Below, in pieces: positions 3,174-32,190 of a stretch of DNA of 64,000 bases. Source of the DNA: Candidatus Woesearchaeota archaeon (GTDB lineage: Archaea; Nanobdellota; Nanobdellia; Pacearchaeales; GW2011-AR1); contig CAYIHY010000001.1 in assembly GCA_964363345.1 (NCBI GenBank), positions 7,483 to 71,482 on the forward strand. The letters run 5' to 3'. The notes beneath the pieces were generated by a model. That model was not told the DNA's origin, ran no database searches, and saw only the letters and a program-made list of their open reading frames with translations. How positions within the stretch are numbered: the first letter of the stretch is position 1; the number at the start of each line of letters is the position of its first letter. The position numbers and the translations under genes were made by a program.

Positions 3174-3188
3174 TTTTATTATTTTTTC

Positions 3189-3566
3189 TTAAATATTTAC
3201 TCTCACCACATCATCTTCATAACCTGTTCCTGCTCTAGACAAGCTTATCATATCAATCATATCTGAATCTTCTAATGCCTTAAAAACATGCACAATATTT
3301 GAATTTATTGTAATCATTTCTCCAGCATTCAATATGAAAGTTTCCCTTTCTTCAAGATTATCTGGATTAGCAACAGTAACTTCAAATTTACCTTTTAAAA
3401 TATAACTATATTGTATAGACTGTTTGTGGTAATGCTTTGCCCTTACAACCCCTTTTTTAGTTACTATAAATCCTACATGGCTAACTTCTTTATTTAAAAT
3501 ATCAGTTATTGTCCCTCTTTCATCAATATGCACCGGACTTATTTTTTCAACTGTTACTCCTTCCAT
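3189..3566 (-). CDS. Cupin protein, WxcM-like / FdtA-type NDP-4-keto-6-deoxy-sugar 3,4-ketoisomerase candidate
   Basis: 125 aa; HYHKQSIQYSYILKGKFEV ... NIVHVFKALED resembles the WxcM C-terminal cupin (FdtA family). It sits between the aminotransferase and the C-methyltransferase. Confidence 0.45.
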   Translation of the reverse strand: MEGVTVEKISPVHIDERGTITDILNKEVSHVGFIVTKKGVVRAKHYHKQSIQYSYILKGKFEVTVANPDNLEERETFILNAGEMITINSNIVHVFKALEDSDMIDMISLSRAGTGYEDDVVRVNI

Positions 3567-3567
3567 T

Positions 3568-11216: not shown

Positions 11217-12101
11217 TTACGAATTTTTATTTTTTAAATTACTTCTCAAAACTTCTTTATTTCTTTCACTTTCACGATCAAATAAAAAACCTTCCCAAAA
11301 ACCAGTTATATTAGCAATATGAATTAAAGGGGCAATTAATATTAAATAAATTGGGAATAAATGGGGATATTTTCTAAATGGGAACCTGCAGATAATTGAA
11401 ATAAATCCGAATATAGGAATAGATCTTAATATCCTATGCCAAAATCCCCCCTCATTTTCTCCGTAAGAGATGAGGGCATTCGCATGTCTTCTGACTAATT
11501 TCCCATTTCCTTCAGAATAAATTTTTAACTTATCTATCACTCCACGAAAACTTTTTTGTTTGTGCAGATGAAGCACTTTCACATTAGCGCGTGCAAATTT
11601 ACCCCTTTTTTTTAGTTTCATGCTTAGGTCAGCTTCAAGTCCAATTATCTTTGGATCTTCACTAATCAATCCTACCTCCATCAAATCTTTTTTTCTATAT
11701 GCACACGCTCTCATGTCCATGGTGGGATATTGTATATTTCTCTCATTTATCGTAGCTAATCGAAGCATAAATGGATATTTTTTCCAATATTTTTCAGGCA
11801 AGAATAAATCTGAAACTGTTGCAACAATTTTTTTATCTTCTAGCGGTTTGATTAATTTTTCAAGCCAAAATTCGTTTTCTGGGATACAGTCCTGAGCTAA
11901 GATAATGATTATCTCTCCCTTTGCTTCCTTTATTCCCAAATTCATTGAGACCGCTTCGGGATTATTCCATTTTTCAACAATCTCTGCTTTTATTGTCTGT
12001 TTTTTTAACATTTCTTTTACCCTTTCAAAAACTTCTTTTTCTGGCCTGTAAATCGGAATTACCACACTTACTTTTTTTTTGGCAGAACCTTTATTTTTCA
12101 T
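11217..12101 (-). CDS. Glycosyltransferase family 2
   Basis: VSVVIPIYRPEK at the N-terminus (the GT2 hallmark); DxD-type region (AQDCIPE); C-terminal hydrophobic helices. Confidence 0.7.
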   Translation of the reverse strand: MKNKGSAKKKVSVVIPIYRPEKEVFERVKEMLKKQTIKAEIVEKWNNPEAVSMNLGIKEAKGEIIIILAQDCIPENEFWLEKLIKPLEDKKIVATVSDLFLPEKYWKKYPFMLRLATINERNIQYPTMDMRACAYRKKDLMEVGLISEDPKIIGLEADLSMKLKKRGKFARANVKVLHLHKQKSFRGVIDKLKIYSEGNGKLVRRHANALISYGENEGGFWHRILRSIPIFGFISIICRFPFRKYPHLFPIYLILIAPLIHIANITGFWEGFLFDRESERNKEVLRSNLKNKNS

Positions 12102-15010: not shown

Positions 15011-15772
15011 ATGGAAAATGTTAAATTTAATTTTGAAGGAAAAACAGTTGTAATAACTGGAGCATCCAGAGGAATCGGGTTGGCAATAGCAAACGCATTT
15101 TTAGAAAGTGGCGCATCAGTGATAAATATCTCAAAATCTAACTCAGAAGTAAATTTAGAAAAACCTAATTATATTTTCTTGCAGGAAGATATCTCTAATC
15201 TCCCCTCAATTGAAAAATGGATAAATGAATTCTACAACAGGGGCAAGAAAATAGATTTTTGGATAAACAATGCAGGAATTTATTTTGGTTCACCGCTGAT
15301 TAATGTCTCTGAAGAACATTGGGATGAAATTTTTTCTGTAAATTTAAAATCTCTTTTTTTCCTTTCTAAATTTGTTGCACAACACATGAAAGAAAATGGG
15401 GGGGGAATAATTCTAAATGCTTCTTCTTTTGCTGCAAAAATTCCTTCAATTAATCGAGGGATATATGCGGCTTCTAAATCTGCAGTGGTGAGCTTAACAA
15501 GATCTATGGCCGCCGAATGGGCCCAATATAAAATCAGGGTAAATAGTTATTGCCCCGGAGTTATCTTAACAGATATGACTAAAGATTTAACTGAGAAAAA
15601 AAATGATGAATTAATTTCAAATATAGCCTTGCATCGATATGGTTCCCCCGAAGAAGTTGCAAAGGTTATTCTATTCCTTTGCTCCGACTCTTCGGAGTAC
15701 ATCACAGGAGAAATAATAGAAATAAGTGGAGGAAAATTTCTTGTGCAAAACCAGAAAGACATCATCTTATGA
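15011..15772 (+). CDS. Short-chain dehydrogenase/reductase (classical SDR)
   Basis: VVITGASRGIGLAIANAF (TGxxxGxG); NNAG; YAASKSAV (YxxxK). Confidence 0.85.
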   Translation: MENVKFNFEGKTVVITGASRGIGLAIANAFLESGASVINISKSNSEVNLEKPNYIFLQEDISNLPSIEKWINEFYNRGKKIDFWINNAGIYFGSPLINVSEEHWDEIFSVNLKSLFFLSKFVAQHMKENGGGIILNASSFAAKIPSINRGIYAASKSAVVSLTRSMAAEWAQYKIRVNSYCPGVILTDMTKDLTEKKNDELISNIALHRYGSPEEVAKVILFLCSDSSEYITGEIIEISGGKFLVQNQKDIIL

Positions 15773-17349
15773 TAAAAACTATTTCTACCTCTTATAGTAA
15801 AGAAGATACCATTGATTTTATAATTGAAGATGATGCTGAATTTGATTGGGTTTCAAAATTTGATGATTCTAAATTTGATCGTCTTTTTGTAGTTGTAGAT
15901 AAAAATGTAAATAAATTATGGGGGGATAAGATTTTTTCTCAGTTAAAAAAACATAATAAAGAGATATTTTTATTTGATGTAGAAGCAATCGAAGAGAGTA
16001 AGTCGATAAATTTTTACCCAAAATTAATAGATTTTTTTGAATCTAATCGATGTGGATTATCTGATCTGGTAATTGGTATAGGGGGGGGAATAATAATCGA
16101 TTTAGTAACCTTTACCTGTTCAACATATATGAGAGGACTCCCAGTTTATCTAATTGCAACTACTTTAATCGGACAGATTGATGCTTCAAGCGCAGGCAAG
16201 ACTTGTTTAAATACCCAAAATGCAAAAAATGTTTTGGGAACATTTTATTATCCATTAAAAGTATATAATAATATTAATTTTTTAAAAACATGTTCAGATT
16301 ATCACGCACGCCAGGGCTGGTCCGAGATTTTTAAATACGGGCTTTTGGATTCTAAAGAATTATTGGATATGATTTCGGATTATTTTAAAAATAAGACTGA
16401 TAAAAAATTAATGGATATAATTGAATCCGCGATTAGCGTAAGAATTAAAATAAGAAATAAAAATCCTTTAGCAAGCAATTTAGGGCATACCTTTGGACAT
16501 GCCATAGAAAAAATATCAAACTTTAAAATTCTCCATGGAGATGCTATAGCCGTCGGAACAATCATCTCATTATATTTTTCTAAAAAAATAGGAATAATTG
16601 AAGAAGAAGAATTAAATGAGATAGTTTTAAGGATGAAAGAACTAAATTTGAATATTCTTTTAGACAAAGAGATAGAACCCAATTTAATGGTTGAATTAAT
16701 GATGCATGATAAAAAATCTTCAAGTAAGAATCTCAATCTTGTTTTAATAAAAGGAATTGCTAAACCCTACGAAGAGAAGGGATATTATTTCTACAAAACA
16801 AATCCCGAATTTGTGAAAGAATTCATCAAAGAGTTTCTTGTATCATATCCGTATACCCTCTCTGAATGTTCAAAAGTCATAACCTCCGATGAAATAAATT
16901 ATAATATCATAACTTCCATAAATCATCTAAGCTTTACTGTAAGTGATGCTGAAAAATCAGCAATATTTTATGAAAAAATATTAGGTTTAAAATTAGTAAA
17001 TATCTCAGAACGAGACCAAGTTTTTTCAGAAAAAGTTACAGGTATAAAAAATGCCCACCTAAAAATAGCCTACTTAAGCGGCAATAACTGTTCCATTGAA
17101 TTGATCCAATATCTTTCTCCTCAAGGAGAAAAAATAGATACGAAGACATGTAATGTCGGAAGTGCGCATATTTGTTTTAATGTTAAAAATTTTTCAGAAT
17201 TTATTGAAAATTTAAAAAATAAAAATGTTTTTTTTATAAATTCCCCCCAGATAATTCCCGACGGACCAAATAAAGGAAAAATGGTAGTATATTCTGAAGA
17301 CCCTGATTCAAATAAACTGGAATTTATCTCTGAAGAAAGAATAGAGTAG
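15769..17349 (+). CDS. Fusion: 3-dehydroquinate-synthase-like sugar phosphate cyclase (N-term) + VOC/glyoxalase-like domain (C-term)
   Basis: GIGGGIIIDLVTFTCSTYMRGLPVYLIATTLIGQIDASSAGKTCLN and GHTFGHAIEK....HGDAIAVG closely follow DHQS/EEVS/DOIS family motifs. The C-terminal INHLSFTVSDAEKSAIFYEKILGLK ... GSAHICFNV is a VOC module. The probable start ATG at 15769 overlaps the SDR stop (ATGA); the track ORF starts upstream at 15679. Confidence 0.7.
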   Translation: MIKTISTSYSKEDTIDFIIEDDAEFDWVSKFDDSKFDRLFVVVDKNVNKLWGDKIFSQLKKHNKEIFLFDVEAIEESKSINFYPKLIDFFESNRCGLSDLVIGIGGGIIIDLVTFTCSTYMRGLPVYLIATTLIGQIDASSAGKTCLNTQNAKNVLGTFYYPLKVYNNINFLKTCSDYHARQGWSEIFKYGLLDSKELLDMISDYFKNKTDKKLMDIIESAISVRIKIRNKNPLASNLGHTFGHAIEKISNFKILHGDAIAVGTIISLYFSKKIGIIEEEELNEIVLRMKELNLNILLDKEIEPNLMVELMMHDKKSSSKNLNLVLIKGIAKPYEEKGYYFYKTNPEFVKEFIKEFLVSYPYTLSECSKVITSDEINYNIITSINHLSFTVSDAEKSAIFYEKILGLKLVNISERDQVFSEKVTGIKNAHLKIAYLSGNNCSIELIQYLSPQGEKIDTKTCNVGSAHICFNVKNFSEFIENLKNKNVFFINSPQIIPDGPNKGKMVVYSEDPDSNKLEFISEERIE

Positions 17350-17393: not shown

Positions 17394-18431
17394 ATGGTGA
17401 AAAAACAATTCGGTATAAATGGTTTTGGAAGAATTGGCAGAGCAATCTTCAGAAAAGCTTTAGAAAATGGAACTTTTGATATCCCCCTAATAAACGATCT
17501 TAATCCAGATAATAATAATTTAGCTTATCAATTAAAATATGATTCTATTTACGGAACTCTTCCTTTTGAAATAAGGGGAAATGAAAAAGGTATAACAATT
17601 GAGGGAAAACAGTATGAGATTTCTCATGAGAGAGAGATAAATAAAGTTAATTGGAAAAATCTTGAATGTGTTGTTGATTCGTCGGGGGTAAAAGAAAATG
17701 TTGTCCTTGCAAGAAAATTAGTAGAACAAAATGTTAAGTATGTGATTGTAACCCATTCCCCTGAGGAAAAATTATTGGATAGAAGTGTAATAATGGGAGT
17801 TAATGAAAATGAAATTGATTTTAATAAAGATAGAATTATCTCTAGCAGTATCTGTGATGCAACGGCATTTGCTCCAGTAGTGCAACTTCTTGACTCTGCA
17901 TATGGGGTTGAACACGGATTCTTGACGACAATTCATCCTTGGCTTCAGCATCAACATCTTTTAGACGGTCCATCAACTTCTTGGTCAAAACCCGGACAAA
18001 TCTATCCCGGATACGAGGAAGGAAGAGCGAGCACTGTTTCATTATTGCCCAAACCAACTTCCTGTGTTAGTGCCACTTGCAAAGTGATTAAATCTCTTGA
18101 AGGAAAATTTGACTCTTTTTCTTACCGAGCTCCGACGGCAATTGTTTCAACCGCAAATATCAATCTTAAGCTAAATAAAAATCCTTCAAAAGAAGAAATT
18201 ATCTCATTATTCCTTGAAGCAGAAAAAAATCAAAAATGGAAGATATTTTCAAATAATTTCGAACCTTTAGTGTCAATAGATTTTAAAGGAAATGAACATT
18301 CTGTTTCTGTTGACCATAGATGGACCGCGATAAATAAATTTGGTTATGCTCGGTTGGTTCTTTGGTATGATAATGAACAAGGCTATGGGAGCAGAGTTTT
18401 AGATTTAGCTGATTATTTATTATCTCATTAA
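17394..18431 (+). CDS. Type I (bacterial/eukaryotic-type) glyceraldehyde-3-phosphate dehydrogenase-like dehydrogenase with a divergent active-site region
   Basis: FGINGFGRIGR, YDSIYG and LWYDNEQGYGSRVLDL are GAPDH/E4PDH signatures. The catalytic segment is SSICDATAFAP instead of the canonical ASCTTNCLAP. Confidence 0.65.
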   Translation: MVKKQFGINGFGRIGRAIFRKALENGTFDIPLINDLNPDNNNLAYQLKYDSIYGTLPFEIRGNEKGITIEGKQYEISHEREINKVNWKNLECVVDSSGVKENVVLARKLVEQNVKYVIVTHSPEEKLLDRSVIMGVNENEIDFNKDRIISSSICDATAFAPVVQLLDSAYGVEHGFLTTIHPWLQHQHLLDGPSTSWSKPGQIYPGYEEGRASTVSLLPKPTSCVSATCKVIKSLEGKFDSFSYRAPTAIVSTANINLKLNKNPSKEEIISLFLEAEKNQKWKIFSNNFEPLVSIDFKGNEHSVSVDHRWTAINKFGYARLVLWYDNEQGYGSRVLDLADYLLSH

Positions 18432-20296
18432 ATGTAATCATTAATTAAAAAAGAAGGTTTTTTTCTTGAATCATTCTCGAGAAATAATTTTTTCCATAAT
18501 TCTATATTCATCAAAAACAAAAGTTGTCTAAATGAATTATCTTTAGTTTTTCTTTGCTCTTCCATAAAATTTCCTTCTCTAATCTGTCTTATGAGTTTTT
18601 TTATCCGAGGGATATTATAATATTCTTTTTCTAATTCAGAGTTGGAGAAAATTGTTTCAGAAAAATAAAGAAGCTCTTTTTTAAAATATTCTGATAATGG
18701 CGTAACCATTGGCAATTTTTTTCTGTAAACAATCTCTTTTGGGAGTAATGGTAATGCTAATTTTTGGAGAATTATTTTTTTGTCTGCTCCATAAAATTTA
18801 TATTTTGCAGGAATTGTCATGGCAAATTCAACAACATTATGGTCTAAATAAGGAACTCTTACTTCGTGTGAATGAGCCATGCTGTTCTTATCTAGCTTAT
18901 TGCAATGAAAATAAGGAATTTCTGTTTTTAATTCGTAGAGTAGAGCTTTATTTAATTGGCTTCCGTCGTCATTTTTACAATTTTTTATTGTTTTACCAAA
19001 GGTATTCATAACATCAAGATCTTCAGGTATATTCAAAATACTTTTTTTAAAAAATTCTTCCTTGTCTTTGTCAAACACGCTGGAGGAAATATATTCTACT
19101 TTTTCTTTGAAAGGCATATTTATTTTATTTTTTAAATTTTCATAATTTTCTCTATTCAGTTCATTCTTCATTGGGGGAAGTTCAGTATACACATCATATC
19201 GGTTATACCCCCCAAATAATTCATCAGAACCCTCCCCACAAAGACTTACTTTTACACTTTTGCTTATGCCTTTGTATAAATCATATACCGAAACCATTGC
19301 AGGTCTGGAAAATGGAAATTCCATATGCCATAATGTTTTAATTAAATCCGTAACATAATCTTTTGAACTTAAATGCAACTCGGTGTGATCTGTCTGACAG
19401 TGTTCTGCAACCAACCTTGCAGCAGAATATTCATCTTCCGGAATATCAAATCCCGCAGTAAAAGTTTTTATCGATTCTTTAAATTTACTTGCTAAAGCAA
19501 CTATAACACTGGAATCAATTCCTCCAGACAAAGAAATTCCAACTGGAACGTCACTTATTAACATTCTTTTTACAGAAGAAGAAAGGAGCTCACTCAATTT
19601 TTTTATATAAAATTGTTCATTATTGCAAGTTTCATTTGATTCCAAATTCCAATATCTAAAAGAATCTATTTTATCGTCTTTTAGCACCATATAATGTGCA
19701 GGTTCCAACTGAAAGATTTTTTCTATTAATGTTTCTCCTCTAATTGGGTACTCATAGTAAACAATTTGTTTAAGGCAATTTTCATTCAAATCTCTTTTTA
19801 CTTCATCGGAGGCTAAAATAGATTTTATTTCTGATGCAAATATAAATTTAGAATCTTTGTAATAATAATAAAGAGGTTTTATCCCCATCCGATCTCTAGC
19901 TAAAAATAATATTTTTTTATTTGAATCCCAAATTGCAAATGCAAACATTCCATTAAACAAGTTCAAGCAATCAAATCCATATTCTTCATAAGCGTGGATG
20001 ATTACTTCCGTATCTGAACCTGAGTTAAACCTATGCCCCCTTTTTTCAAGTTCAGGCTTAATCTCCTGAAAATTATATATCTCTCCATTAAAAGCTATAA
20101 TAATGCTTCCGTCTTCATTAGACATAGGCTGTTTTCCCCTCTCACTCAAATCAATTATGCTTAATCTTTTATGCCCGAAAGAGACTGATTTATCCACATA
20201 ATATCCATCTTGGTCAGGGCCCCTATGAGAAATTGAACGAGCCATCTTTTTTATAAGTTCTTCATCCCCCCAGTTAAAACCACATATTCCACACAT
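18428..20296 (-). CDS. Asparagine synthetase B-type glutamine amidotransferase (a WbpS-like sugar amidotransferase is possible)
   Basis: N-terminal MCGICGF (Ntn Cys2); PP-loop SLSGGIDSS; 622 aa. Confidence 0.85.
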   Translation of the reverse strand: MCGICGFNWGDEELIKKMARSISHRGPDQDGYYVDKSVSFGHKRLSIIDLSERGKQPMSNEDGSIIIAFNGEIYNFQEIKPELEKRGHRFNSGSDTEVIIHAYEEYGFDCLNLFNGMFAFAIWDSNKKILFLARDRMGIKPLYYYYKDSKFIFASEIKSILASDEVKRDLNENCLKQIVYYEYPIRGETLIEKIFQLEPAHYMVLKDDKIDSFRYWNLESNETCNNEQFYIKKLSELLSSSVKRMLISDVPVGISLSGGIDSSVIVALASKFKESIKTFTAGFDIPEDEYSAARLVAEHCQTDHTELHLSSKDYVTDLIKTLWHMEFPFSRPAMVSVYDLYKGISKSVKVSLCGEGSDELFGGYNRYDVYTELPPMKNELNRENYENLKNKINMPFKEKVEYISSSVFDKDKEEFFKKSILNIPEDLDVMNTFGKTIKNCKNDDGSQLNKALLYELKTEIPYFHCNKLDKNSMAHSHEVRVPYLDHNVVEFAMTIPAKYKFYGADKKIILQKLALPLLPKEIVYRKKLPMVTPLSEYFKKELLYFSETIFSNSELEKEYYNIPRIKKLIRQIREGNFMEEQRKTKDNSFRQLLFLMNIELWKKLFLENDSRKKPSFLINDYI

Positions 20297-20345: not shown

Positions 20346-21038
20346 TTACAACTTGACAACCAACACTTGGCTTGCACATAATTCAATAAAAACTTCGGGC
20401 TTATCCCCAAAAAATTCTGCAAATGCTTTTGTAACTCCAATTGAATTTACATAGTCATGAGATATTATTATCCCTCCTTTACTCATTCGCGGATAAAAAA
20501 ATTTAAGACACTCTAATGTAGATTCATATAAATCTGCGTCAAGATGAACAAAAGAAAATTTTTTATTAACAATGGGTTCTGAAGTTGCAGGAAATATGCC
20601 CCTATAAAAATAAACATTTGGAAATTTTCCTAAATATCTTTTTACTTTATCCAATGGAGCAGAAAAATCTCCTTTTTCAAAATGTTTTTCCTCACTTGCT
20701 CCAGGCAATCCCTCAAAAGTATCAAATAAGTACAGACTTCTATTCCCCTTCATTTCACAAATTACCCTACCAGAAGCTCCTTTATAGACTCCAACTTCTG
20801 CAATATCCCCCTTTATTTTCTCTGTTCTTTTTGTGATAGAATAAATTTGATACATCTCGTCGTCGTCAAGAGTTGTTCCTATCTCCTTTTTTATTTGATT
20901 AATTAATTTGAATGCATTTATCCGATCTTCAGAACCATTATAAAAAGTCATTACCCCATTTTCTACAGAAATTCCTTTTTTTATTATCTCCCTCACAATT
21001 CTTGCAGGAATTCTCACTATTTTTGGTATCTTATTCAT
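20346..21038 (-). CDS. TylF/MycF-family SAM-dependent (sugar) O-methyltransferase
   Basis: DTFEGLPG and HLDADLYEST motifs are typical of macrocin-O-methyltransferase-family enzymes; 230 aa. Confidence 0.6.
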   Translation of the reverse strand: MNKIPKIVRIPARIVREIIKKGISVENGVMTFYNGSEDRINAFKLINQIKKEIGTTLDDDEMYQIYSITKRTEKIKGDIAEVGVYKGASGRVICEMKGNRSLYLFDTFEGLPGASEEKHFEKGDFSAPLDKVKRYLGKFPNVYFYRGIFPATSEPIVNKKFSFVHLDADLYESTLECLKFFYPRMSKGGIIISHDYVNSIGVTKAFAEFFGDKPEVFIELCASQVLVVKL

Positions 21039-21061: not shown

Positions 21062-23683
21062 TTAATATCTAATGTTTGTTGTTTTAGTTATTTTGTTAAA
21101 TACTTCTTCTCCTTTTTCTTTTCCAAGTCTATCTATTACACAATCATGATATCTAGCCATTGACAACATTTTACTCGTCTCGGAATTAAAATCAGTTTCT
21201 AAAGCCGCTCTTAACCATTTTTCATCGATAGGATTTTCTGTTAAATAATTTTTCCCTTCATTTGACAAAGCGTCCATCCACCTTTCATCAAGTTCTCCTT
21301 TTACATATAATGTTCCGAACTTGCAGATATTCCTTAATCTATTTTCTATCTCTTTAGGAAAACTAATCCCCCCAATTCCTGTATTTGTATCTCCAGAACA
21401 ACTATCATTAATTTGAAATCCTCTTTCCTTTGCTGTTTGTTCCACGTGGGTGTGGGGATAAATTTGCAAAGGGTAAAGAGAAATAATACTTCCTTTTCCA
21501 ATTCTTTTCATTCCTTCTAAGGTTTCTAGAGCATCTTCAACAGGATCAGATATCGGAAGTCCGACAATTGCCTGTAAATTAACCAGATAGCCAAATGAAA
21601 CGAGTCTATCATAAGCCTTTTTTATTTGTTCTTCATTATCCCATTGCCGATTAAATAATTTTAATGATTCTGAACGTATTGCCTGAACTCCAAGCCCGAC
21701 GCAATTAACTATATTTCTTAATTTTTTTAATATTTCATCTGAAGCTTTCAAAACGCTAACCGAAGTTGTTGAAACATACATGGGGATATTTATTTCTTTT
21801 TTCCAAACATCAACAAATTCAGAGAGCCATTCTTCTGCATTTTTACCGGCAAACAAATCATCGTCTACCCATTCAATATCATCAGTGGGATATTTTTTTA
21901 TTATCTTTGCTTCTTCTATAACTGTTTTAATATCCCTTCTTCCCAAAAAATAATTTGCCTGGGCATCATTTCCAAACAATTCTCTTCGATGCAAACTTGA
22001 AGAACTGCAGTAAGTACAAGCATAAGGACATCCAAGCATAGAGAGTATAACTTTCCTGTAACGCTGTCCCATTCTAGGAATATCTTCATAACATTTTTCT
22101 CTTGCGGGCATTGGTAAATCATTTGGATTTCCAGGGATTGTTGTGATTATCCCCCTTTCTCCGTTAAGAAATCTTTCAACTGAGCCATTAACAGGTCCGC
22201 GAACAACAACATCAACATTATTTAACTTTGAGATATCTGGAGAAGCAGTTGCATGGTGTCCCCCGAAAATAGAAATTATTCTAGGATTTTTCTCTTTAAT
22301 TTGATTTAAAATTCCGTACGCCTGCGGGAAAAAAGTAGTCATAGGAGAAAATAAAACATAATCCGGATTCCAATTTAAAATTTTTTCAGCAACTTTTTCA
22401 TCTCCTTCTGCATCAAAGAATTTTATTTCCTGATTAAATTTTTGTAACTCTCCCCCAACATAATATAAACCATATGACTCTTCATTACCAAAACATACCA
22501 ATGCGTGCTTCATTTTACTGCTTACTTTAGACAAAGTTTTTTGTTCATAAAATTCTTTTATTTTAGCGCAGACGTACTTAACATCTTTTTTGCTTACTGC
22601 AGGATTAATTGGCAAATAAAGATATCTCTCGTGGAGATAATCCATATTTGGACAAGGGCTCTTAAATTTTTTAAATATCTCAAATAAATCATTACGTAAG
22701 TGAATCATATTAACATCAACACCATTATTCAGAAGAAATTCTGCCAATTCATCTCTATATTCAGACAAAATTCCAAATAACCAATAAGAACCTCCAGCGA
22801 TAGGAATTACTTCTCTCGGTAATTCTTTTAGATAATCTAATGCTAAAGATTTCCTATACTCCATAATTAAATCTAAATAAGGAAGTGATGCTAATCCAAA
22901 ACAAGCATCAATGTCTGTCGGCTGATATTTATACCCCGCCTCTTCAATATCAAAAGTCATTTCTCTCCGTTCCCATGCCTGATAATTTTTTTTAGCTTTT
23001 AATTCTCTATCAATACCAAACCATCGCAATAATTTAGCCCTATCATAATCTTTTTTATTTTTTAAAACAAGTATTCCCCCATCGGCAGTAGTAATATGCT
23101 TAATTGCTTGAAGAGAATAACAAATGTAATTCCCCTCTAAATTTTTAGGTACATGGTGTTGTGATGCATCTACTATCACAGGGAGATTTTTTTCTTTAGC
23201 TAATTCAAATATTTTAGGATTTACTTCTATTCCTCCGAGATGAACTGCAACAATCGCCTTTGTCTTTTCAGTTATTTTTTTCCTTGCATCAATTGGGTCT
23301 ATATTTAACGTATCTTTTTCAATGTCTGCAAAAACAATTTGTGCTCCGCGTCTCACAAGCCCCATTTGTCCTGCAGTACAGTCCAAAATAGGCACTATAA
23401 CTTCGTCATCTTTTTTAATGTCTAATAAATGATAAGCAATTTCAAGTGCAGCAGTTCCAGAATTCATAAATAAAACATATTCATATCCAAATTTTTTAGC
23501 GAATTCTTTTTCAAATTTTTCTACTTTCGGACCCTGCCCCAACCATCTTCCCTCTAATGTTTCTTCTATTTCCTTTAATATCTCCTGTTTTGGAATAAAC
23601 GGCCAGAAAAGAGGAATCTTTGATTTTTTTGTATCCTGAAAAATTTCTTTCAGAGTTTTATCTTCGTCAATCTCTTTTATCAT
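21062..23683 (-). CDS. Tri-domain fusion: DegT-like PLP aminotransferase (N-term) + B12-binding domain + radical SAM domain (C-term)
   Basis: N-term LFMNSGTAALEIAYHLLDIKKDDEVIVPILD (DegT fold); middle ALVCFGNEESYGLYYVGG (Rossmann/B12-type); CxxxCxxC at MLGCPYACTYCSSS; 873 aa. Confidence 0.7.
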   Translation of the reverse strand: MIKEIDEDKTLKEIFQDTKKSKIPLFWPFIPKQEILKEIEETLEGRWLGQGPKVEKFEKEFAKKFGYEYVLFMNSGTAALEIAYHLLDIKKDDEVIVPILDCTAGQMGLVRRGAQIVFADIEKDTLNIDPIDARKKITEKTKAIVAVHLGGIEVNPKIFELAKEKNLPVIVDASQHHVPKNLEGNYICYSLQAIKHITTADGGILVLKNKKDYDRAKLLRWFGIDRELKAKKNYQAWERREMTFDIEEAGYKYQPTDIDACFGLASLPYLDLIMEYRKSLALDYLKELPREVIPIAGGSYWLFGILSEYRDELAEFLLNNGVDVNMIHLRNDLFEIFKKFKSPCPNMDYLHERYLYLPINPAVSKKDVKYVCAKIKEFYEQKTLSKVSSKMKHALVCFGNEESYGLYYVGGELQKFNQEIKFFDAEGDEKVAEKILNWNPDYVLFSPMTTFFPQAYGILNQIKEKNPRIISIFGGHHATASPDISKLNNVDVVVRGPVNGSVERFLNGERGIITTIPGNPNDLPMPAREKCYEDIPRMGQRYRKVILSMLGCPYACTYCSSSSLHRRELFGNDAQANYFLGRRDIKTVIEEAKIIKKYPTDDIEWVDDDLFAGKNAEEWLSEFVDVWKKEINIPMYVSTTSVSVLKASDEILKKLRNIVNCVGLGVQAIRSESLKLFNRQWDNEEQIKKAYDRLVSFGYLVNLQAIVGLPISDPVEDALETLEGMKRIGKGSIISLYPLQIYPHTHVEQTAKERGFQINDSCSGDTNTGIGGISFPKEIENRLRNICKFGTLYVKGELDERWMDALSNEGKNYLTENPIDEKWLRAALETDFNSETSKMLSMARYHDCVIDRLGKEKGEEVFNKITKTTNIRY

Positions 23684-23884: not shown

Positions 23885-24361
23885 ATGCCAAAAAATCTGG
23901 AAGAAAAGATATCAGAGAAAAAATTAAAAAAATTTTCATTGAGAAAATTTGGTACTGATACTTTTGCAATGGTAAGTTTTTCTTTTGTGGTGGAAGGGAC
24001 AAGAGAATTAATAGTGGGGATGTCTCCAGAACAAACATTATATTCTCGACTTGCAGGAGTCCCAATTGATTTGGTTATTGGAAGACCTTATGGAAAATAT
24101 CTAGATTATCTGCAATCCAAATTTAAGATAACTGAAAAAAGTCCCTTCATAAAAAAAACTGCAGTTGATATCGGTGCATTTGTAAGCGCAATGATGCCGA
24201 TTTATGCAGGAATACTTTATTCAATTGGAGTGGATAAAGAAACAATTGCGGTCTCATGTGCTTCAGCAGCATTATTACAAACAGCTTATGGAAGGCCTTA
24301 TGGATTATATGTTGATTTTTTAAGGAAAAAATTTGGAAAGAAAAATATACCGATTATATAA
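23885..24361 (+). CDS. AlaE-like small membrane exporter (L-alanine exporter family)
   Basis: DTFAMVSFSFVVEGTRELIVGMSPEQTLYSRLAGVPIDLVIGRPYGKYLDYL parallels E. coli AlaE (DTFAMV..GMS.EQS.YSRL..P....I.WPYG.YRD). Confidence 0.5.
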   Translation: MPKNLEEKISEKKLKKFSLRKFGTDTFAMVSFSFVVEGTRELIVGMSPEQTLYSRLAGVPIDLVIGRPYGKYLDYLQSKFKITEKSPFIKKTAVDIGAFVSAMMPIYAGILYSIGVDKETIAVSCASAALLQTAYGRPYGLYVDFLRKKFGKKNIPII

Positions 24362-26002: not shown

Positions 26003-26887
26003 ATGAATCTTACCCAAATTACAAGTATCGGAATTGAAGCATTAAGAAATGCTTATTCTATACAGAAAAAACTTTCCGAGGAAGGAATAATAAATGAGTT
26101 TTCTTACAAAGGAAATGGAACAGATAAGGCCTTGAAAGGAGATTGGGAATCAGAAGAGGTTGTGATTGAAACTTTCAAGCAAACAAAATTTCCAGTAAGA
26201 ATAATCTCAGAAGAACACGGACAAATTGACATAGTAAGAAACCCATTGTATCTTGCAGTTTTAGACGGGTTTGACGGAAGCAGTGGTTTGAAAATGAATC
26301 TAAGAGCAAGAGGAGGAACAATGTTGTCTATAGCAACAAATCTCAATCCAAATTATTCCGACTTTATATTAGGAGGATTAACTGAATTTTGCCAAGATAA
26401 AATTTTATATGCAATAAAAAATCAAGGAGCATTTTTAATTGATACTAAAAATGAATCAACCGAAGAAGTTGAAATTAAAAAAAGAGAATCTTTTAGAAAT
26501 AAAAGTCCAATCCATTTAGATGACCCTTCTCTTTATGAATATGCAAAAGGAATAACTTCTGGATTAGATGAAATTGGAAAATGCGTTAATGACACATTTA
26601 CAAAACCTCTCCAAAGAAGAAATTTTACAAATTTATATGCATTAAATTCAAGTTCTGCAATGTGCTTTGATTTAATTATTGGAAATGTTGATGCTGTTTG
26701 CGGAGTAATTGCTAAAGGAGTTTTTGAACCTCCTGCTGAATATGTTTTGTTAAGAGAAATTGATGGAAGTGCTTACGGAAAAGTTAATGGAAAATGGGAA
26801 GAAATTGGAAATAAAAAATGGAGTGGGTATGGGCGTCCTTTAGCTCCATTAATTCGTGTTGCTAATCTGAAATTGGAAATGAATTAA
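26003..26887 (+). CDS. Inositol-monophosphatase / FBPase-superfamily phosphatase-like protein
   Basis: ISEEHG (metal-binding EE), LDGFDGSSG (compare DPIDGT) and a C-terminal DLIIGNVDAVCG segment (compare WDxAAG). Confidence 0.4.
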   Translation: MNLTQITSIGIEALRNAYSIQKKLSEEGIINEFSYKGNGTDKALKGDWESEEVVIETFKQTKFPVRIISEEHGQIDIVRNPLYLAVLDGFDGSSGLKMNLRARGGTMLSIATNLNPNYSDFILGGLTEFCQDKILYAIKNQGAFLIDTKNESTEEVEIKKRESFRNKSPIHLDDPSLYEYAKGITSGLDEIGKCVNDTFTKPLQRRNFTNLYALNSSSAMCFDLIIGNVDAVCGVIAKGVFEPPAEYVLLREIDGSAYGKVNGKWEEIGNKKWSGYGRPLAPLIRVANLKLEMN

Positions 26888-26952
26888 TTAGTATATTTCA
26901 GATACATAAAGTTTAAAATACATTATAAGGAACTATTACCTTAATAACTAAA

Positions 26953-27942
26953 ATGAAAGTTGAAATTTATGATTTGTTAGGCAGAGAATTAACAATTAAT
27001 CCTACTAAAAGACCATTTAGATTTAATGGAGAAGTAGAAGGATTTGCTAGAACAAATTGGCTAGAGAAAAGAGCAAAATGGAATGACGCTATTGTTCCTG
27101 CTGGGAAATCAATTGTTTATACTCGCGATGGTGGAGTCACAATTTCAGCAGATGTTTCTAATTATAGTCAACATCTTGGAGCTATAGAATCAATAAGAGA
27201 AGGGAAAGACTTTGCTCCAAAAAGAGGGGTAAATGGTTTAGGAGTAACTTGTTATGTTGTTTCAAGTGATGATAAAATTATTCTTAAGAGGAGACCAAGA
27301 AATAATCCACATGCCCCAAGTTTTTACGACAGCATAGGTGGGGGTTGGATGACCTCTGCAAATATTGTTGGTTTGAATAAACTTTGCACTGATATGACAT
27401 TAGGGATGGCAGAAGCTCTTTATGAACCCCTTTGGCAGGCAGAAAGTGAGTATGAAGAAGAATCCCATTTGAAGCCAGTTTCATTTGAGTTAGATAATAA
27501 ACCTAGTTTTATTTGTAGGGGATTAAACGATGGATTAAACTTAGGCATTAGTTATATTGGAAAAGCTACTGTAAAAGCAGATGATATTATTGATGCAATT
27601 CAGGGATACGATAGAAAAGGTGAAGTCATAGAGCATGAAAGGGCTTTTGTTGCAGTGGATATAAGCAACTTGGCAAAATTATTGGAGACACAAGCAGAAT
27701 TGCAAAAAATTCCAAGGGAAGAACTAAGAGATTATGTTGTTAATCCTGACGGCACAGATGCTCCAATGGTGGATGAATATTTTGGAGGATTTTGGGCAGC
27801 ATATAAAAAATTAACAGGACGTCCCCTTCCACAATCTTTATCTCTCGACAGCCTTGCTAAACAGGGAATTGAAATAGATTTATTCCCCAGAGACGGAGAA
27901 AATCTAAAAGATGTAGAATACTCTTTTTTTGTAAATGAATAG
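26953..27942 (+). CDS. Hypothetical protein
   Basis: 329-aa ORF, no recognised motif. Confidence 0.3.
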   Translation: MKVEIYDLLGRELTINPTKRPFRFNGEVEGFARTNWLEKRAKWNDAIVPAGKSIVYTRDGGVTISADVSNYSQHLGAIESIREGKDFAPKRGVNGLGVTCYVVSSDDKIILKRRPRNNPHAPSFYDSIGGGWMTSANIVGLNKLCTDMTLGMAEALYEPLWQAESEYEEESHLKPVSFELDNKPSFICRGLNDGLNLGISYIGKATVKADDIIDAIQGYDRKGEVIEHERAFVAVDISNLAKLLETQAELQKIPREELRDYVVNPDGTDAPMVDEYFGGFWAAYKKLTGRPLPQSLSLDSLAKQGIEIDLFPRDGENLKDVEYSFFVNE

Positions 27943-27983
27943 TTATCAGTTTCAAACTTCCTTTTAATTTTTTATAATTAATT

Positions 27984-28955
27984 TTATCTTAATTCAGCAA
28001 GATTTATCTTTCCTTGTTTTAATCTAATTATCTTGTACCCTTTCTTTTTTATAATCTTTAATGCTTGCTTGTATGCTTTTTCTCCTTCAATGTGTCTTAA
28101 TGCCCCAAGTATTGTTCCAAAAGCATCCTCAACAATCATAAAACCTCCTGTTTCTGGATTTACTTCAGGAACATTGCCATAAATGTCTGGTTTTATTTTT
28201 CTTATTTTTCCGTCATTGCCAATAGATTTTAATATTTCAGGCAAGTCTTTCAATTGATAGCATAAGAATTCTTTGCCTTTTGTTCTTTTCATAACCTCTT
28301 CTGCTTTTAAGCTAATCTTAGCATATCCATTAAATAAAGAGGCTAAGCTGACTTCAAATCCTTTGCAGAAACCCGTGTAAAAGATTTTTCCAATCTCTTC
28401 TCTTTTTAAATTTAAATGCCTGATTAAATTCCATTTAGGAAATCCATTCATATCAAAAATATCTTTAATTAATAATGGCTGTTTTTTTCTTGCTTCTTTA
28501 AAGTATATCTCTGCGTTCTGTCCTGCAGTAGGAATGTCATAAAAACCAGCTCCATGCTGAGTTTTCTCCGGAGTCCTTTTCTCTATAAAAAAACATCTGT
28601 CCGAAGTGATAGGCATTATTTCAGTGGCTAACCCATTAATTAATTCAAGCGGTATCTTGTGGGTTTCTTTTGCTATTTTTACCATCCCAAGCAAATGCTT
28701 ATATTCTGTTTTCCCGCAATGTAAAACCATTGCCTCTTTTTTGCAATCGACTTGTATAACATTTGGGATAACTGAACTAGTCCACCCTTTATTTTCTAAT
28801 TCCCATTTGGGATTAGAATAGTCTTTAAATTTCTGACTAAGAATAAGCACACTATCATTTAAAGCACAAACTTTCCCCTCCGCAAGTGGAGTTTTTGATT
28901 GATAAAGATAAATCTCTTTTCTCGGGAATTTATTTTTCATCTTCTTTGAGGACAA
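27984..28955 (-). CDS. Hypothetical protein
   Basis: 323-aa ORF, no recognised motif; immediately downstream of rmlA. Confidence 0.3.
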   Translation of the reverse strand: MSSKKMKNKFPRKEIYLYQSKTPLAEGKVCALNDSVLILSQKFKDYSNPKWELENKGWTSSVIPNVIQVDCKKEAMVLHCGKTEYKHLLGMVKIAKETHKIPLELINGLATEIMPITSDRCFFIEKRTPEKTQHGAGFYDIPTAGQNAEIYFKEARKKQPLLIKDIFDMNGFPKWNLIRHLNLKREEIGKIFYTGFCKGFEVSLASLFNGYAKISLKAEEVMKRTKGKEFLCYQLKDLPEILKSIGNDGKIRKIKPDIYGNVPEVNPETGGFMIVEDAFGTILGALRHIEGEKAYKQALKIIKKKGYKIIRLKQGKINLAELR

Positions 28956-28998: not shown

Positions 28999-29898
28999 TT
29001 ATTTCTTCCTCAAATAATCTAATACTTCTGCTTGTTTCTTAGTTATCTGAGAAAGTTTTTCAATAATTGTTTCCTGATCGTCTCCCTTTGACGGGAACTT
29101 AAATGTTTCTGCAAAATCATCTGTATCCAGCCAGAAATTATCTTCTTTAAGTTCTTTGTCTCTAACTAAATTACTAGCTCGACTTAATGATTCTATTGTT
29201 CCTGCATCTGACCAATATCCTTTAACCGGATTATAAAAACATTCTCCTCTTTGAACATAAATCGCAATAGAGTCAGTTATTTCTAATTCCCCTCTTGCAG
29301 AGCGTTTTTGTGTTTTGATTATGTCAAATATTTTGGAATCAAACATATACAATCCAGTCATAGCCAAATTTGATTTTGGATTTTCTGGTTTTTCTTCTAC
29401 CTGCACCACTTTTTCATTTTCAATAATTGCAACACCAAATCTTCTTGCTGCCTTTAGTCCCACTTCCTTCAAGAAAATTCCCGCGCCTCTTCCAGTTTCA
29501 GCAAGTTTTTTTTCAAAGTTTTGAACATAAGCAGACATATTATCTTCAAATATATTATCTCCAAGAATAACAGTTATCGAATCTTTATTTGCAAAATCTC
29601 CTGCAAGTGCCAATGCTTCAGCAATTCCTCCAGCTCCCTCTTGAACCTTGTAAGTTAATTTTATTCCAAAATCAATTCCAGAACCAAGCAGATTTGCAAA
29701 ATCTCCTGCATATTCTCTTCCAGAGATAATTAAGATGTCTTTAATTCCAGCATTAATCAAAGTAAATAAAGGATAGTAAATCATTGGCTTGTTATAGACC
29801 GGGAGCAAATGTTTATTTGTAACTTTTGTGCAGGGCATTAATCTTGAACCTGTTCCTCCTGCTAAAATAATCCCCTTCATTTTAAAATCCTCCACCAA
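28999..29898 (-). CDS. rmlA: Glucose-1-phosphate thymidylyltransferase-like sugar nucleotidyltransferase (long archaeal-type form)
   Basis: MKGIILAGGTGSRLMPCTKVTNKHLLPVYNKPMIYYPL is the RmlA/G1P-nucleotidyltransferase signature; 299 aa with a C-terminal extension. Confidence 0.8.
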   Translation of the reverse strand: MVEDFKMKGIILAGGTGSRLMPCTKVTNKHLLPVYNKPMIYYPLFTLINAGIKDILIISGREYAGDFANLLGSGIDFGIKLTYKVQEGAGGIAEALALAGDFANKDSITVILGDNIFEDNMSAYVQNFEKKLAETGRGAGIFLKEVGLKAARRFGVAIIENEKVVQVEEKPENPKSNLAMTGLYMFDSKIFDIIKTQKRSARGELEITDSIAIYVQRGECFYNPVKGYWSDAGTIESLSRASNLVRDKELKEDNFWLDTDDFAETFKFPSKGDDQETIIEKLSQITKKQAEVLDYLRKK

Positions 29899-30866
29899 TT
29901 TGTATTATTCTTATACCAAGAAACAAGTTCTTTAATTTCTTTTTCTAAATCTTTATGTAGATATTTAAAACCTAAATTTTTTAATTTTTCTCCCGAAATT
30001 GCATATCTAAAATCATGCCCCTTTCTATGCAGAACTTTTTCTATCATTTCTTCTCCAAGTCCAAAATTTTGAAGAAGTAATTTTGTCATTTGAATATTTG
30101 TTCTTTCATTTTCTCCGGGAATATTATAGGCTTCCCCAATCTTTCCATTTTGCGAGATAAACCAAATAGCTCTACAATTATCTTCTACATGAAGCCAATC
30201 CCTCACATTTAATCCCGGATTTTCTTCGGACCACATTAAAGGGACTTTTTTTCCTTCAATAAGATTAGTAATAAATAAAGGCAATAATTTTTCTGGAAAT
30301 TGGTATTCCCCATAATTATTTGCACTTCTAGTTATAATAACTGGGAAATTGTGTGTCTTGAAATAGGACAATGCAGTTATCTCGGCAGAAGCTTTTGTTG
30401 CAGAATAAGGACTAGAAGGATTTAGTTGAGCATTTTCAGAAAAAAATCCTTCATTGAGACTCCCATAAACTTCATCTGTTGAAATTTGTATAAATTTTTT
30501 TACTCCTCTCTCCATTGAGATTTTAAAAAGGTTGCACGCTCCAAGAAAATTTGATTTTTCAAAATCATCAGAATTAAAAATGCTTCTATCTACATGACTT
30601 TCTGCTGCAAAATTAAAAACAATTTCTGGTTTTTCTTCATCAAAGACTTTATCTATAATATCTTTATCACTAATATCCGCTAATATAAATTTGTAATTTT
30701 TATTTTCTGAAATCCCCATGTGAGAAATATTTTTTCCTTTTCCGGCATATGTCTTTTTGTCTACATTTACAACGTTAACCTCTTCTTTAACTTCTGGATT
30801 GGTAAGCAAATATCTTATAAAATTACTTCCAATAAATCCGCATCCTCCAGTTACTAGTATTTTCAT
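29877..30866 (-). CDS. rmlB: dTDP-glucose 4,6-dehydratase
   Basis: MKILVTGGCGFIGSNFIRYLL; YSATKASAE (YxxxK); 329 aa; overlaps rmlA by 22 nt. Confidence 0.85.
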   Translation of the reverse strand: MKILVTGGCGFIGSNFIRYLLTNPEVKEEVNVVNVDKKTYAGKGKNISHMGISENKNYKFILADISDKDIIDKVFDEEKPEIVFNFAAESHVDRSIFNSDDFEKSNFLGACNLFKISMERGVKKFIQISTDEVYGSLNEGFFSENAQLNPSSPYSATKASAEITALSYFKTHNFPVIITRSANNYGEYQFPEKLLPLFITNLIEGKKVPLMWSEENPGLNVRDWLHVEDNCRAIWFISQNGKIGEAYNIPGENERTNIQMTKLLLQNFGLGEEMIEKVLHRKGHDFRYAISGEKLKNLGFKYLHKDLEKEIKELVSWYKNNTNWWRILK

Positions 30867-30987: not shown

Positions 30988-32190
30988 ATGAAAATTGCCC
31001 ACGTAAATATGTTTTTTCTTCCAACATTCGGCGGAGTTGAACAGGTGATATATGAATTAGCCACAAGGCAGGTTAAAGATGGACACGAAGTTCATGTTTT
31101 TTGCTGCGATTCTGACAAAAATAACAGAATAGAAATTAAAGAAGAAATAATTGAAGGAATCCACGTTCACCGAATACCTTATTGGTTCAGACTTTCTTTG
31201 AATACTTTTGTATGGCTGTCATTCTTATGGAAATTTAAGGGGAAATTTGATATTGTTCACAGCCACGTTTCAGGGCATGATTACATTTTATTTGCCGGAT
31301 GGTTATCTAAACTGAAAGGAGCAAAATATATCCACACAACACATTGCCCGTGGACAGATGCTTCATTCAGGCCGAAAATTATTCGCCCATTTTTATTTTT
31401 GAATGATATTTTCATGAACAAATTTTCGTACAAATTTATTGATAAAATAATTGCAATCACCCCCTGGGAATTGGAAACTTTGGAAAAATATTCAGAAAAA
31501 GAAAAAATTGAAATTATCCCAAATGGAGTCGATAAAATTTTATTTAAAGAAGTTAGAAATAAGCAGTTCAAAAAAAATAATAATATCAAAGAAAAATTTT
31601 TGGTTTTATTTTTCGGAAGATTGAATCCGACAAAAGGTCCGGAGATGCTTGCTAAAGCAGCAATAAATATAATAAAAAAAAGAAAAGACATCGCATTTGT
31701 CTGGGTTGGTCCCGATGAAGGAAAAGCCGAGGAAGTTAAGGAATTAATTAAGAATTTTAAAAATATGAAATATCTCGGTCCGATAAAAGGAAAAGAAAAA
31801 ATTGCAGATATGTATCAATCTGCTGATGTTTATGTTCTTCCAAGTTATCGCGAAGGATTGCCCTTAACTTTATTTGAAGCAATGGCCTCGAGACTTCCTA
31901 TCGTTGCTTCGCCTGTCAACGGAGTGCCCTTTGAAATGAAAGAAAATGAAAACGGCTTTTTTTCAAATTACGGAGACATTGATTCTCTGGAAAAAAATAT
32001 AATTAAATTAATTGATAACCCAAAACTTGCAAAAAAAATCTCAGAAAATAACTTTAAAAAATCAAAAAATTATAACTGGGATGACATATACAAAAAATAC
32101 ATGAATGAATATAAAAAACTTTTAATCAGCCGTGAGCAGTATATCAGCGGGAAAATGAGTGTAAAGAAACCGGAGGTGTCGTTCAGGTGA
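30988..32190 (+). CDS. Glycosyltransferase, GT4 family (GT-B)
   Basis: C-terminal EGLPLTLFEAMASRLPIVAS (the EX7E region); 400 aa. Confidence 0.75.
   Translation: MKIAHVNMFFLPTFGGVEQVIYELATRQVKDGHEVHVFCCDSDKNNRIEIKEEIIEGIHVHRIPYWFRLSLNTFVWLSFLWKFKGKFDIVHSHVSGHDYILFAGWLSKLKGAKYIHTTHCPWTDASFRPKIIRPFLFLNDIFMNKFSYKFIDKIIAITPWELETLEKYSEKEKIEIIPNGVDKILFKEVRNKQFKKNNNIKEKFLVLFFGRLNPTKGPEMLAKAAINIIKKRKDIAFVWVGPDEGKAEEVKELIKNFKNMKYLGPIKGKEKIADMYQSADVYVLPSYREGLPLTLFEAMASRLPIVASPVNGVPFEMKENENGFFSNYGDIDSLEKNIIKLIDNPKLAKKISENNFKKSKNYNWDDIYKKYMNEYKKLLISREQYISGKMSVKKPEVSFR

Follow-up and report, generated by a model that had tools for sequence, protein, structure and literature searches.

Which reactions are carried out by a single archaeal polypeptide that joins a sugar aminotransferase to a B12-type radical S-adenosylmethionine (SAM) enzyme? 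The question is raised by a gene located on the reverse strand, at 21062..23683, of the 64,000-nucleotide stretch of archaeal DNA analysed here (contig CAYIHY010000001.1, hereafter the window). An initial annotation had described an 873-aa open reading frame (ORF) in which a DegT/DnrJ-like domain that uses pyridoxal phosphate (PLP) is followed by a B12-binding domain and by a radical SAM core with the motif CPYACTYC. A Pfam search of the translation recovered the three domains in that order, and the motif lies at residues 552–559. The ORF is uninterrupted in the ORF list (ATG start, 873 aa, TAA stop, no internal stop), its length is divisible by 3 and it contains no N. Its product is identical to NCBI MEK6827511.1, from a metagenome-assembled genome of a Nanoarchaeota archaeon, whose name in NCBI, ‘aminotransferase class V-fold PLP-dependent enzyme’, ignores the radical SAM half. 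Both halves belong to known superfamilies; what sets the protein apart is their combination in a single chain, on which no paper was found in the literature searched. Judged from its sequence, the polypeptide is a rare fusion of a widespread, uncharacterised gene pair, and the main value of the fusion is the functional lead that it gives on an uncharacterised radical SAM family of many phyla.

The two halves and the gene pair behind them

The DegT_DnrJ_EryC1 profile (Pfam PF01041) matched residues 32–375 with an E value of 4.8e-62 and a score of 210.7 bits, versus a cutoff of 19.8, over positions 4–359 of the 360 in the profile. Alignment to solved sugar aminotransferases spans the first 380 residues from end to end and is best with 4zwv/4xau (AtmS13, E 5.5e-38), followed by ArnB, TlmJ, QdtB, CalS13 and WecE. 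In the DegT family a lysine forms the Schiff base and an aspartate pairs with the pyridinium nitrogen, the lysine being replaced by histidine in the dehydratase branch (ColD/E1). In the fused protein, K195 (SLQAIKH) is aligned with the lysine of the KH pair in 4zwv and D172 is part of DASQ, so that the PLP lysine, singled out from the start as a feature to verify, is in place. The best named matches were all C-4 aminotransferases, namely PseC, the dTDP-4-amino-4,6-dideoxygalactose transaminase family (WecE-like), ArnB, LegC, WecE and AtmS13; the match to DesI, at 86 bits, was weaker than those to PseC, WecE or ArnB. No equivalog cutoff of NCBIfam was attained by this half (best PseC, 158.7 bits versus 423.5). 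On these matches, the DegT half is a member of the DegT/DnrJ/EryC1/StrS family and a complete, ordinary fold-type I aminotransferase. It resembles the C-4 nucleotide-sugar aminotransferases AtmS13, ArnB, PseC and WecE along its whole length, PLP lysine and aspartate included, but these are stand-alone proteins of ~370–390 aa.

With the DegT domain, the B12-binding match at residues 402–503 (49.6 bits versus a gathering score of 32.1) and the Radical_SAM match at residues 549–718 (PF04055, 47.2 bits versus 29.5) make up the three Pfam domains of the protein. The B12-binding-type Rossmann domain, N-terminal to the radical SAM core, was recognised both by sequence and by structure. It carries S446-P-M and G474-G475-H-H at the ends of strands 3 and 4, and the invariant S446 and G474-G475-H476 align with the S...GG-H positions of the cobalamin-binding enzyme TokK. 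More broadly, the N-terminal region of this half matches the B12 regions of BchE, HpnR, ApyD, HpnJ and KedN5. The cysteines C552, C556 and C559 are invariant across 36 family members, and there is no second cysteine cluster motif. In its C-terminal region GDTN is invariant and RY[HY][DE]C..DRL is conserved (Y, C, D, R and L invariant). Structure comparison matched the fold to radical SAM structures, with listed figures of 24.2 for MgmA, 22.9 for AprD4, 20.4 for CysS, 20.2 for RimO, 19.6 for MiaB, 19.2 for TsrM, 16.2 for TokK and 14.4 for OxsB.

Curated families did not claim this half. The matches to KedN5 (NF033712, 20.2 bits versus 700) and HpnR (TIGR04367, 41.4 bits versus 650) were below cutoff and mostly over the B12 domain, the MgmA model TIGR04014 was unmatched, and the AprD4 family NF033070 (cutoff 500 bits) gave no match at E ≤ 1 with the radical SAM half or with two of its homologues. 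The NCBIfam libraries searched include no GenK or GenD1 models. By these comparisons, the protein falls outside the AprD4, MJ_1487, HpnR and KedN5 families. The radical SAM half has homologues of ~460 aa across phyla, at 53–62% identity. To define their family we required 45% identity or more along all 483 aa of this half, an invariant GDTN, conserved CP..C.YCSSS, EIEWVDDD, NR.WDNE and RY..C..DRL, and an adjacent DegT gene. The radical SAM half shows every one of these features, which place it in a highly conserved family without assigned function. Judging from source names and record titles, members occur in Deltaproteobacteria, Desulfuromonadaceae, Omnitrophica, Auribacterota, Desulfocapsaceae, Geoanaerobacter, Desulfobacterales, Nitrospira, Kiritimatiellae and the cultured Geomobilimonas luticola JCM 17780 (L020). 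B12-type radical SAM enzymes form more than 100 sequence groups, most of them without known function (PMC12931638).

Inspection of the gene neighbourhoods revealed that a DegT homologue adjoins the radical SAM family gene, on either side, in 15 of the 15 genome loci with flanks, and also in every contig fetched through the protein index. The two genes are often spaced by a 1-nt gap or overlap by 4 nt, the largest distance being 1.7 kb (L013). Since this radical SAM family is invariably found beside DegT, the window ORF can be read as a Rosetta-stone fusion of that pair, and the functional link between its halves that the initial annotation had proposed is supported by this adjacency in every locus examined.

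The fused form itself is rare. When the whole protein was compared by exhaustive phmmer search with 1.84 billion cluster representatives, none of the best 150 was another fused protein; by Pfam, the long matches were DegT proteins with inteins, DegT-GNAT proteins or tandem DegT-DegT proteins. The search for the same architecture in other genomes, advised at the outset, nevertheless yielded four relatives, three by word-indexed search (L002, L003 and L004) and one by genome scan (L012), so that only five sequences with it, the window protein included, were found. In the split archaeal relatives L005, L026 and L028, the genes are arranged in the operon RmlB-RmlA-DegT-radical SAM-GT2 (GT, glycosyltransferase family), without a reductase or a second aminotransferase. 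Their radical SAM proteins are 72–77% identical to that of the window, whereas their DegT proteins are only ~40% identical, which indicates that the DegT partner was exchanged during evolution. The closest DegT (64% identity) is found in another type of fusion (P0012–P0016, 592–618 aa, one named Patescibacteria by its source). These proteins belong to the same DegT clade and likewise have a tailoring enzyme joined C-terminally at the same point, behind the last DegT helix, but this enzyme is a class I SAM methyltransferase. They were considered as partners of stand-alone radical SAM homologues and rejected, because a radical SAM gene is absent from their loci and the methyltransferase follows DegT.

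Other arrangements were encountered during these searches. In Desulfuromonadales-type loci (L007, L010, L011, L015, L020, L021), the B12-type radical SAM gene comes after a flippase gene and two further radical SAM genes, whose products are a SPASM-domain protein (~355 aa) and a ~380-aa protein; L010, L011 and L015 have, in addition, two DegT genes and an FdtA ketoisomerase gene after it. These extra genes suggest that the bacterial version of the pathway is more elaborate. In L002 (14009–16418), a separate B12-radical SAM gene (423 aa) overlaps a gene for a 382-aa DegT protein that shares 28% identity with the fused DegT, so that such pairing appears to recur in more than one family. Three 716-aa proteins (P0084–P0086) are fused in the opposite order, with an N-terminal MoaA-like radical SAM domain (CNYNCTFC, without B12 domain) and a C-terminal DegT domain, and are unrelated to the window fusion. 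Finally, inteins with LAGLIDADG homing endonucleases interrupt many DegT homologues of the clade, at more than one position (P0017–P0021, P0278, P0297, P0304, P0314, P0322).

Substrate and radical step

The window is a glycosylation island, with genes for a flippase, for GT1, GT2, GT4 and GT9 enzymes, for a PMT_2 family protein, for an STT3/AglB-like oligosaccharyltransferase and for a GT4-family phosphosugar transferase. Homologues of RmlA and RmlB are encoded ~5 kb from the fused gene, and in L012 both genes are directly upstream of the fusion; the RmlB of L005 exceeds the equivalog cutoff. The proximity of these two genes points to dTDP-4-keto-6-deoxyglucose (dTDP, deoxythymidine diphosphate) as the entry substrate. 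The substrate is thus very probably a keto-sugar nucleotide, as originally suggested, and it is likely that the fused enzyme acts on a dTDP-4-keto/4-amino-6-deoxyhexose.

The best overall explanation, which we hold with moderate confidence, is that the ORF encodes a bifunctional enzyme of a dTDP-6-deoxyhexose pathway in a surface-glycan island of a Nanoarchaeota (DPANN) archaeon. It would have originated by in-frame fusion of two neighbouring genes, which are translationally coupled in other lineages. Homology and context suggest that RmlA and RmlB would provide dTDP-4-keto-6-deoxy-D-glucose. The DegT domain, with PLP on Lys195, would transaminate C-4 to yield a dTDP-4-amino-4,6-dideoxyhexose, as expected from the strong family match and the intact catalytic residues. 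In the radical SAM half, the [4Fe-4S] cluster held by C552, C556 and C559 would cleave SAM, and the resulting 5'-deoxyadenosyl radical would abstract a hydrogen from an unactivated carbon of the same sugar. The Rossmann domain would most likely hold methylcobalamin, from which a methyl group would be delivered as in class B radical SAM C-methylation, giving a C-methyl-branched or chain-extended amino sugar. Tailoring and installation of this sugar may then fall to the TylF-type methyltransferase, the amidotransferase, the GT2 enzyme and other transferases of the island.

For the radical step, cobalamin-dependent C-methylation is the most likely option, which is put forward tentatively. The methyl group beside an amino group that the initial annotation gave as an example is a plausible conjecture. 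Cobalamin binding is favoured by the Pfam B12 match above threshold, by the matches to other B12 regions, by the S...GG-H residues aligned with TokK and by the unmatched AprD4 model. A redox-neutral modification, such as methylation, is favoured over a keto-forming reaction, because the compact archaeal operon has no reductase or second aminotransferase and because RmlB already gives the 4-keto group. The fusion of the same DegT clade to a class I methyltransferase elsewhere also supports methylation. Each group of B12-radical SAM enzymes with a characterised member includes C-methyltransferases (PMC12931638, a 2026 review). Radical C-methylation after a transamination has a characterised precedent in the gentamicin pathway (PMC4340712), where GenS2 is the transaminase, GenN adds an N-methyl group and GenD1, a cobalamin-dependent radical SAM enzyme, methylates the adjacent carbon.

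Several points weigh against this proposal. Transamination may come before or after the radical step. No B12-radical SAM enzyme is known to use a nucleotide sugar as substrate, and cobalamin would need to be scavenged by DPANN archaea. A PDB search with the single sequence of the radical SAM half detected no relative, and matches with the family profile were marginal, the best being to the B12 region of TokK (E 0.0012). In NCBIfam, this half reached no curated family cutoff (best TIGR04013, the MJ_1487 B12/radical SAM family, 58.2 bits versus 251). Its second-best structural neighbour, AprD4, is a diol dehydratase without cobalamin. Lastly, the AlphaFold model of the full-length protein (mean pLDDT, the predicted local distance difference test score, 84.5; pTM, the predicted template modelling score, 0.56) consists of two confident modules without defined mutual orientation.

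The main rival explanation, which we consider unlikely, is that the Rossmann domain is structural, that no cobalamin is bound, and that the radical SAM half does not methylate. It could be a 1,2-diol dehydratase like AprD4, whose deoxy-keto sugar product would then be aminated by the DegT domain; or it could be a deaminase like DesII, removing the amine installed by the DegT domain so that C-4 is deoxygenated, according to the DesI/DesII logic. In either case, the fusion would help to trap an unstable keto-sugar nucleotide. AprD4 indeed has a B12-like Rossmann domain that binds no cobalamin, and no structural feature separates the non-methylating from the methylating members of the B12-radical SAM enzymes (PMC12931638). 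However, the NCBIfam AprD4 model was unmatched even at E ≤ 1, the S...GG-H signature common to TokK is kept, and the sequences matched by the Rossmann domain are those of cobalamin-binding enzymes. Moreover, no radical dehydration is needed to feed a C-4 aminotransferase, the 4-keto group being already made by RmlB, and the RmlB-RmlA-DegT-radical SAM-GT2 operon lacks a reductase or second aminotransferase that could process a keto product. In loci with two DegT genes, the second one is accounted for by the FdtA 3,4-ketoisomerase. What is left by methylation and by AprD4- or DesII-like reactions falls to other radical chemistry.

Comparison with known systems suggests that the fused enzyme likely works most like GenS2/GenD1 or, alternatively, DesI/DesII. 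The gentamicin system (PMC4340712) shares with our proposal a PLP transaminase acting on a sugar, followed by cobalamin-dependent radical C-methylation of a neighbouring unactivated carbon. A class I methyltransferase also takes part in it; in our case methyltransferases are adjacent, or fused to the same DegT clade in relatives. It differs by its separate proteins, its pseudotrisaccharide substrate and its place in actinomycete secondary metabolism, and the likeness to GenD1 is one of reaction logic. In the dTDP-desosamine pathway, DesI is a DegT-type C-4 aminotransferase acting on dTDP-4-keto-6-deoxyglucose, the very entry substrate proposed here, and is followed by a radical SAM enzyme acting on the amino sugar. 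That enzyme, DesII, has no B12-type domain and deaminates, its 3-keto product requires the aminotransferase DesV, and DesI and DesII are unfused. Relative to both systems, the window protein is a single chain, encoded in an archaeal primary surface-glycan island and probably acting on a nucleotide sugar. Of the two closest structural neighbours, AprD4 (PDB 6fd2), which binds no cobalamin, has as partner the reductase AprD3 and not an aminotransferase, and MgmA (PDB 9ccb), the cobalamin-dependent glutamine C-methyltransferase of methyl-coenzyme M reductase, acts on a protein glutamine and is 15% identical to the radical SAM half.

Searches of the literature, outside of which many subscription-journal papers lay, found neither a characterised fusion of DegT with a B12-radical SAM enzyme nor a B12-radical SAM enzyme acting on a nucleotide sugar, and the 2026 review of these enzymes (PMC12931638) contains no pathway with this architecture. 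The early remark that the architecture is not recognised from any characterised pathway agrees with this. It is possible that the DegT-linked family provides the first cobalamin-dependent radical SAM enzyme working at the nucleotide-sugar level, which would methylate or otherwise functionalise an unactivated carbon of dTDP-4-amino-4,6-dideoxyhexose.

One chain, two modules

Could the window ORF be two ordinary genes, for a 378-aa DegT protein and a 483-aa radical SAM protein, joined by a sequencing or assembly error, or by a rare read-through allele? A contig of 2,033 nt from an independent assembly (L001, run ERR3654040) is identical to the window at 2032 of 2033 positions, and its sole difference is TAA for TAT at exactly codon 379 (positions 445–447 of L001, equivalent to window 22547–22549). 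There, the DegT protein ends in ...KIKEF and, 33 nt further and in frame, comes the ATG of a 483-aa radical SAM protein (M391 here). Archaeal relatives further off are also split. Against this, the exact fused protein is present on four contigs, from three sources (NCBI, Logan, ENA), versus one short contig for the split form. In addition, the four fused relatives, which come from independent samples, are 89% (L003, P0001), 87–89% (L012), 79% (L002, P0002) and 78% (L004, P0003) identical to the window protein, and all carry the tyrosine, in a conserved KEFY(E/K)QK. In L003 and L004 the internal methionine is gone (IKKHALV and KFKHALV), so that the second half is not translatable on its own there. 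Together, these observations argue that the fused state is genuine and ancestral in the clade, and an artefact is highly improbable. By the same comparison, the TAA allele is either a derived nonsense variant or an error in L001. The check set by the initial annotation, a frameshift or sequencing error that would split the ORF, thus turned up one split contig and left the fusion upheld; it is very probably a real fusion of a functionally linked pair. The single-base difference between TAT and TAA, which switches between the fused and the split form, may be a real population polymorphism or an assembly error.

The initial annotation had also read the fusion as a sign of substrate channelling, and this part is unsupported. 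The halves are two separate proteins in most lineages, a variant is split by one base, the DegT partner has been exchanged, and no inter-domain channel could be claimed from the full-length AlphaFold model, where the linker after the last DegT helix has a pLDDT below 50 at residues 385–388. This points to functional coupling and co-stoichiometry rather than to a structural channel: the fusion gives a fixed 1:1 stoichiometry and proximity, and the protein is predicted to be two modules on a flexible tether. Least probable of all is a composite active site, built from both halves, in which PLP would assist a radical 1,2-amino shift on the sugar. The analogy would be with lysine 2,3-aminomutase (radical SAM and PLP) or with lysine 5,6-aminomutase and ornithine 4,5-aminomutase (adenosylcobalamin and PLP). 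Against it, the DegT half is in itself a full aminotransferase of the ordinary kind, most members of the family occur as separate proteins with an interchangeable DegT, and no inter-domain interface is predicted.

The surrounding glycosylation island

Positions of the elements of the fused gene and of its neighbours are given in Table 1. The TylF-type methyltransferase gene is probably co-transcribed with the fused gene.

Table 1. Elements of the fused gene and neighbouring genes of the proposed pathway (positions in the window).
Feature	Position	Strand	Basis or remark
GT2 glycosyltransferase	11217..12101	-	59% identical to the GT2 directly after the DegT/radical SAM pair in L002, L004, L005, L026, L028
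Asparagine-synthase-type glutamine amidotransferase	18428..20296	-	next gene; also near the fusion in L002, L004
TylF-type (Methyltransf_24) methyltransferase	20346..21038	-	23 nt downstream of the fused gene; also downstream of the fusion in L003
C-terminal region of the radical SAM family, aa 719–873	21065..21529	-	conserved, mostly helical; family alignment, model
Radical SAM core, aa 549–718, partial TIM barrel	21530..22039	-	Pfam, model
C552-x3-C556-x2-C559, [4Fe-4S] cluster motif	22007..22030	-	sequence motif
B12-binding-type Rossmann domain, aa 402–503	22175..22480	-	Pfam, model
Internal ATG (M391)	22511..22513	-	start codon where the 483-aa radical SAM protein stands alone (split variant, split relatives)
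Linker, aa 379–390, YEQKTLSKVSSK, 12 residues	22514..22549	-	disordered in model
Codon 379, TAT (Tyr379) in the window, TAA in contig L001	22547-22549	-	contig comparison
DegT/DnrJ/EryC1-type PLP sugar aminotransferase domain, aa 32–375	22559..23590	-	Pfam
Codon AAG of the PLP-binding lysine K195, motif SLQAIKH	23099..23101	-	alignment to 4zwv
Glucose-1-phosphate thymidylyltransferase (RmlA) homologue	28999..29898	-	
dTDP-glucose 4,6-dehydratase (RmlB) homologue	29877..30866	-	358.6 bits versus equivalog cutoff 365.1

Between the fused gene and RmlA/RmlB (26003–28955) are three ORFs of ~300–330 aa, none with a Pfam match at E ≤ 0.001. One of them (26003–26887) has a weak, sub-cutoff NCBIfam match to the fructose-bisphosphatase/inositol-phosphatase family. 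ORFs of similar size occur at the same position in L002, L003, L004 and L012 (21–67% identity among some), one of those in L004 having a weak fructose-bisphosphatase match. Divergent from the fused gene is an AlaE homologue (L-alanine exporter, PF06610, E 2.9e-33, 23885–24361, + strand), a family unexpected for an archaeon; alanine may be a by-product of the amino donor.

A second, conventional amino-sugar pathway is encoded at 1651–6014 (- strand). It comprises a GDP-mannose 4,6-dehydratase (4848–6014), a TylC3-type class I NDP-hexose C-methyltransferase with Methyltransf_13 and Methyltransf_14 domains (3568–4848, -) and a DegT aminotransferase (1651–2769, -) that is 31% identical to the fused DegT. 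With the fused ORF, this suggests two routes to modified amino sugars in the organism, one of class I and one putatively radical. Six genes of the island encode B12-binding and radical SAM domains: 9366–11162 (-), 21062–23683 (-), 32187–33725 (+), 45485–46927 (-), 46924–48318 (-) and 50486–51943 (-). Where alignable, the others are 21–28% identical to the fused one, and several such genes are also present in the islands of relatives (L002, L003, L005, L028). Such a density of radical SAM chemistry on sugars or lipids is unusual and implies cobalamin scavenging.

Three further loci encode other domain combinations. A 556-aa ORF (15679–17349, +) has a 3-dehydroquinate-synthase-like domain, of the sugar-phosphate cyclase type, and a C-terminal glyoxalase/VOC domain. 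Beside it are genes for a short-chain dehydrogenase/reductase (SDR), a glycerate-kinase-like protein (DUF4147/MOFRL), a nucleotidyltransferase and a CDP-alcohol phosphatidyltransferase, and this group could be a pathway for a cyclitol or polyol-phosphate head group. A 655-aa ORF (36838–38805, +) is a fusion of GT9 (heptosyltransferase-like), cytidylyltransferase and NUDIX domains, and a 393-aa ORF (7025–8206, -) joins a class I methyltransferase to a cytidylyltransferase. Scans of the window for tRNA genes and Rfam families gave no match.

A single base that decides between one protein and two offers a clear natural case of adjacent pathway genes becoming a multidomain enzyme. More generally, the fusion and the invariable adjacency of DegT assign one conserved, multi-phylum radical SAM group to the tailoring of nucleotide amino sugars. 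An unknown enzyme family is thereby linked to the making of an unusual cell-surface amino sugar, and a concrete, purchasable starting substrate, dTDP-glucose plus RmlB, can be named for it. If the nucleotide-sugar reading is true, a previously unknown branched amino sugar would be present in the surface glycans of DPANN archaea and of many anaerobic bacteria (Desulfuromonadales, Nitrospira, Omnitrophota, Kiritimatiellae). Six B12-type radical SAM genes in a 64-kb island amount to a heavy investment in radical SAM sugar chemistry by a DPANN archaeon with a reduced genome. They imply that cobalamin is scavenged from the host and that the surface glycan is unusually elaborate, a point of relevance to the attachment of episymbionts to their hosts.

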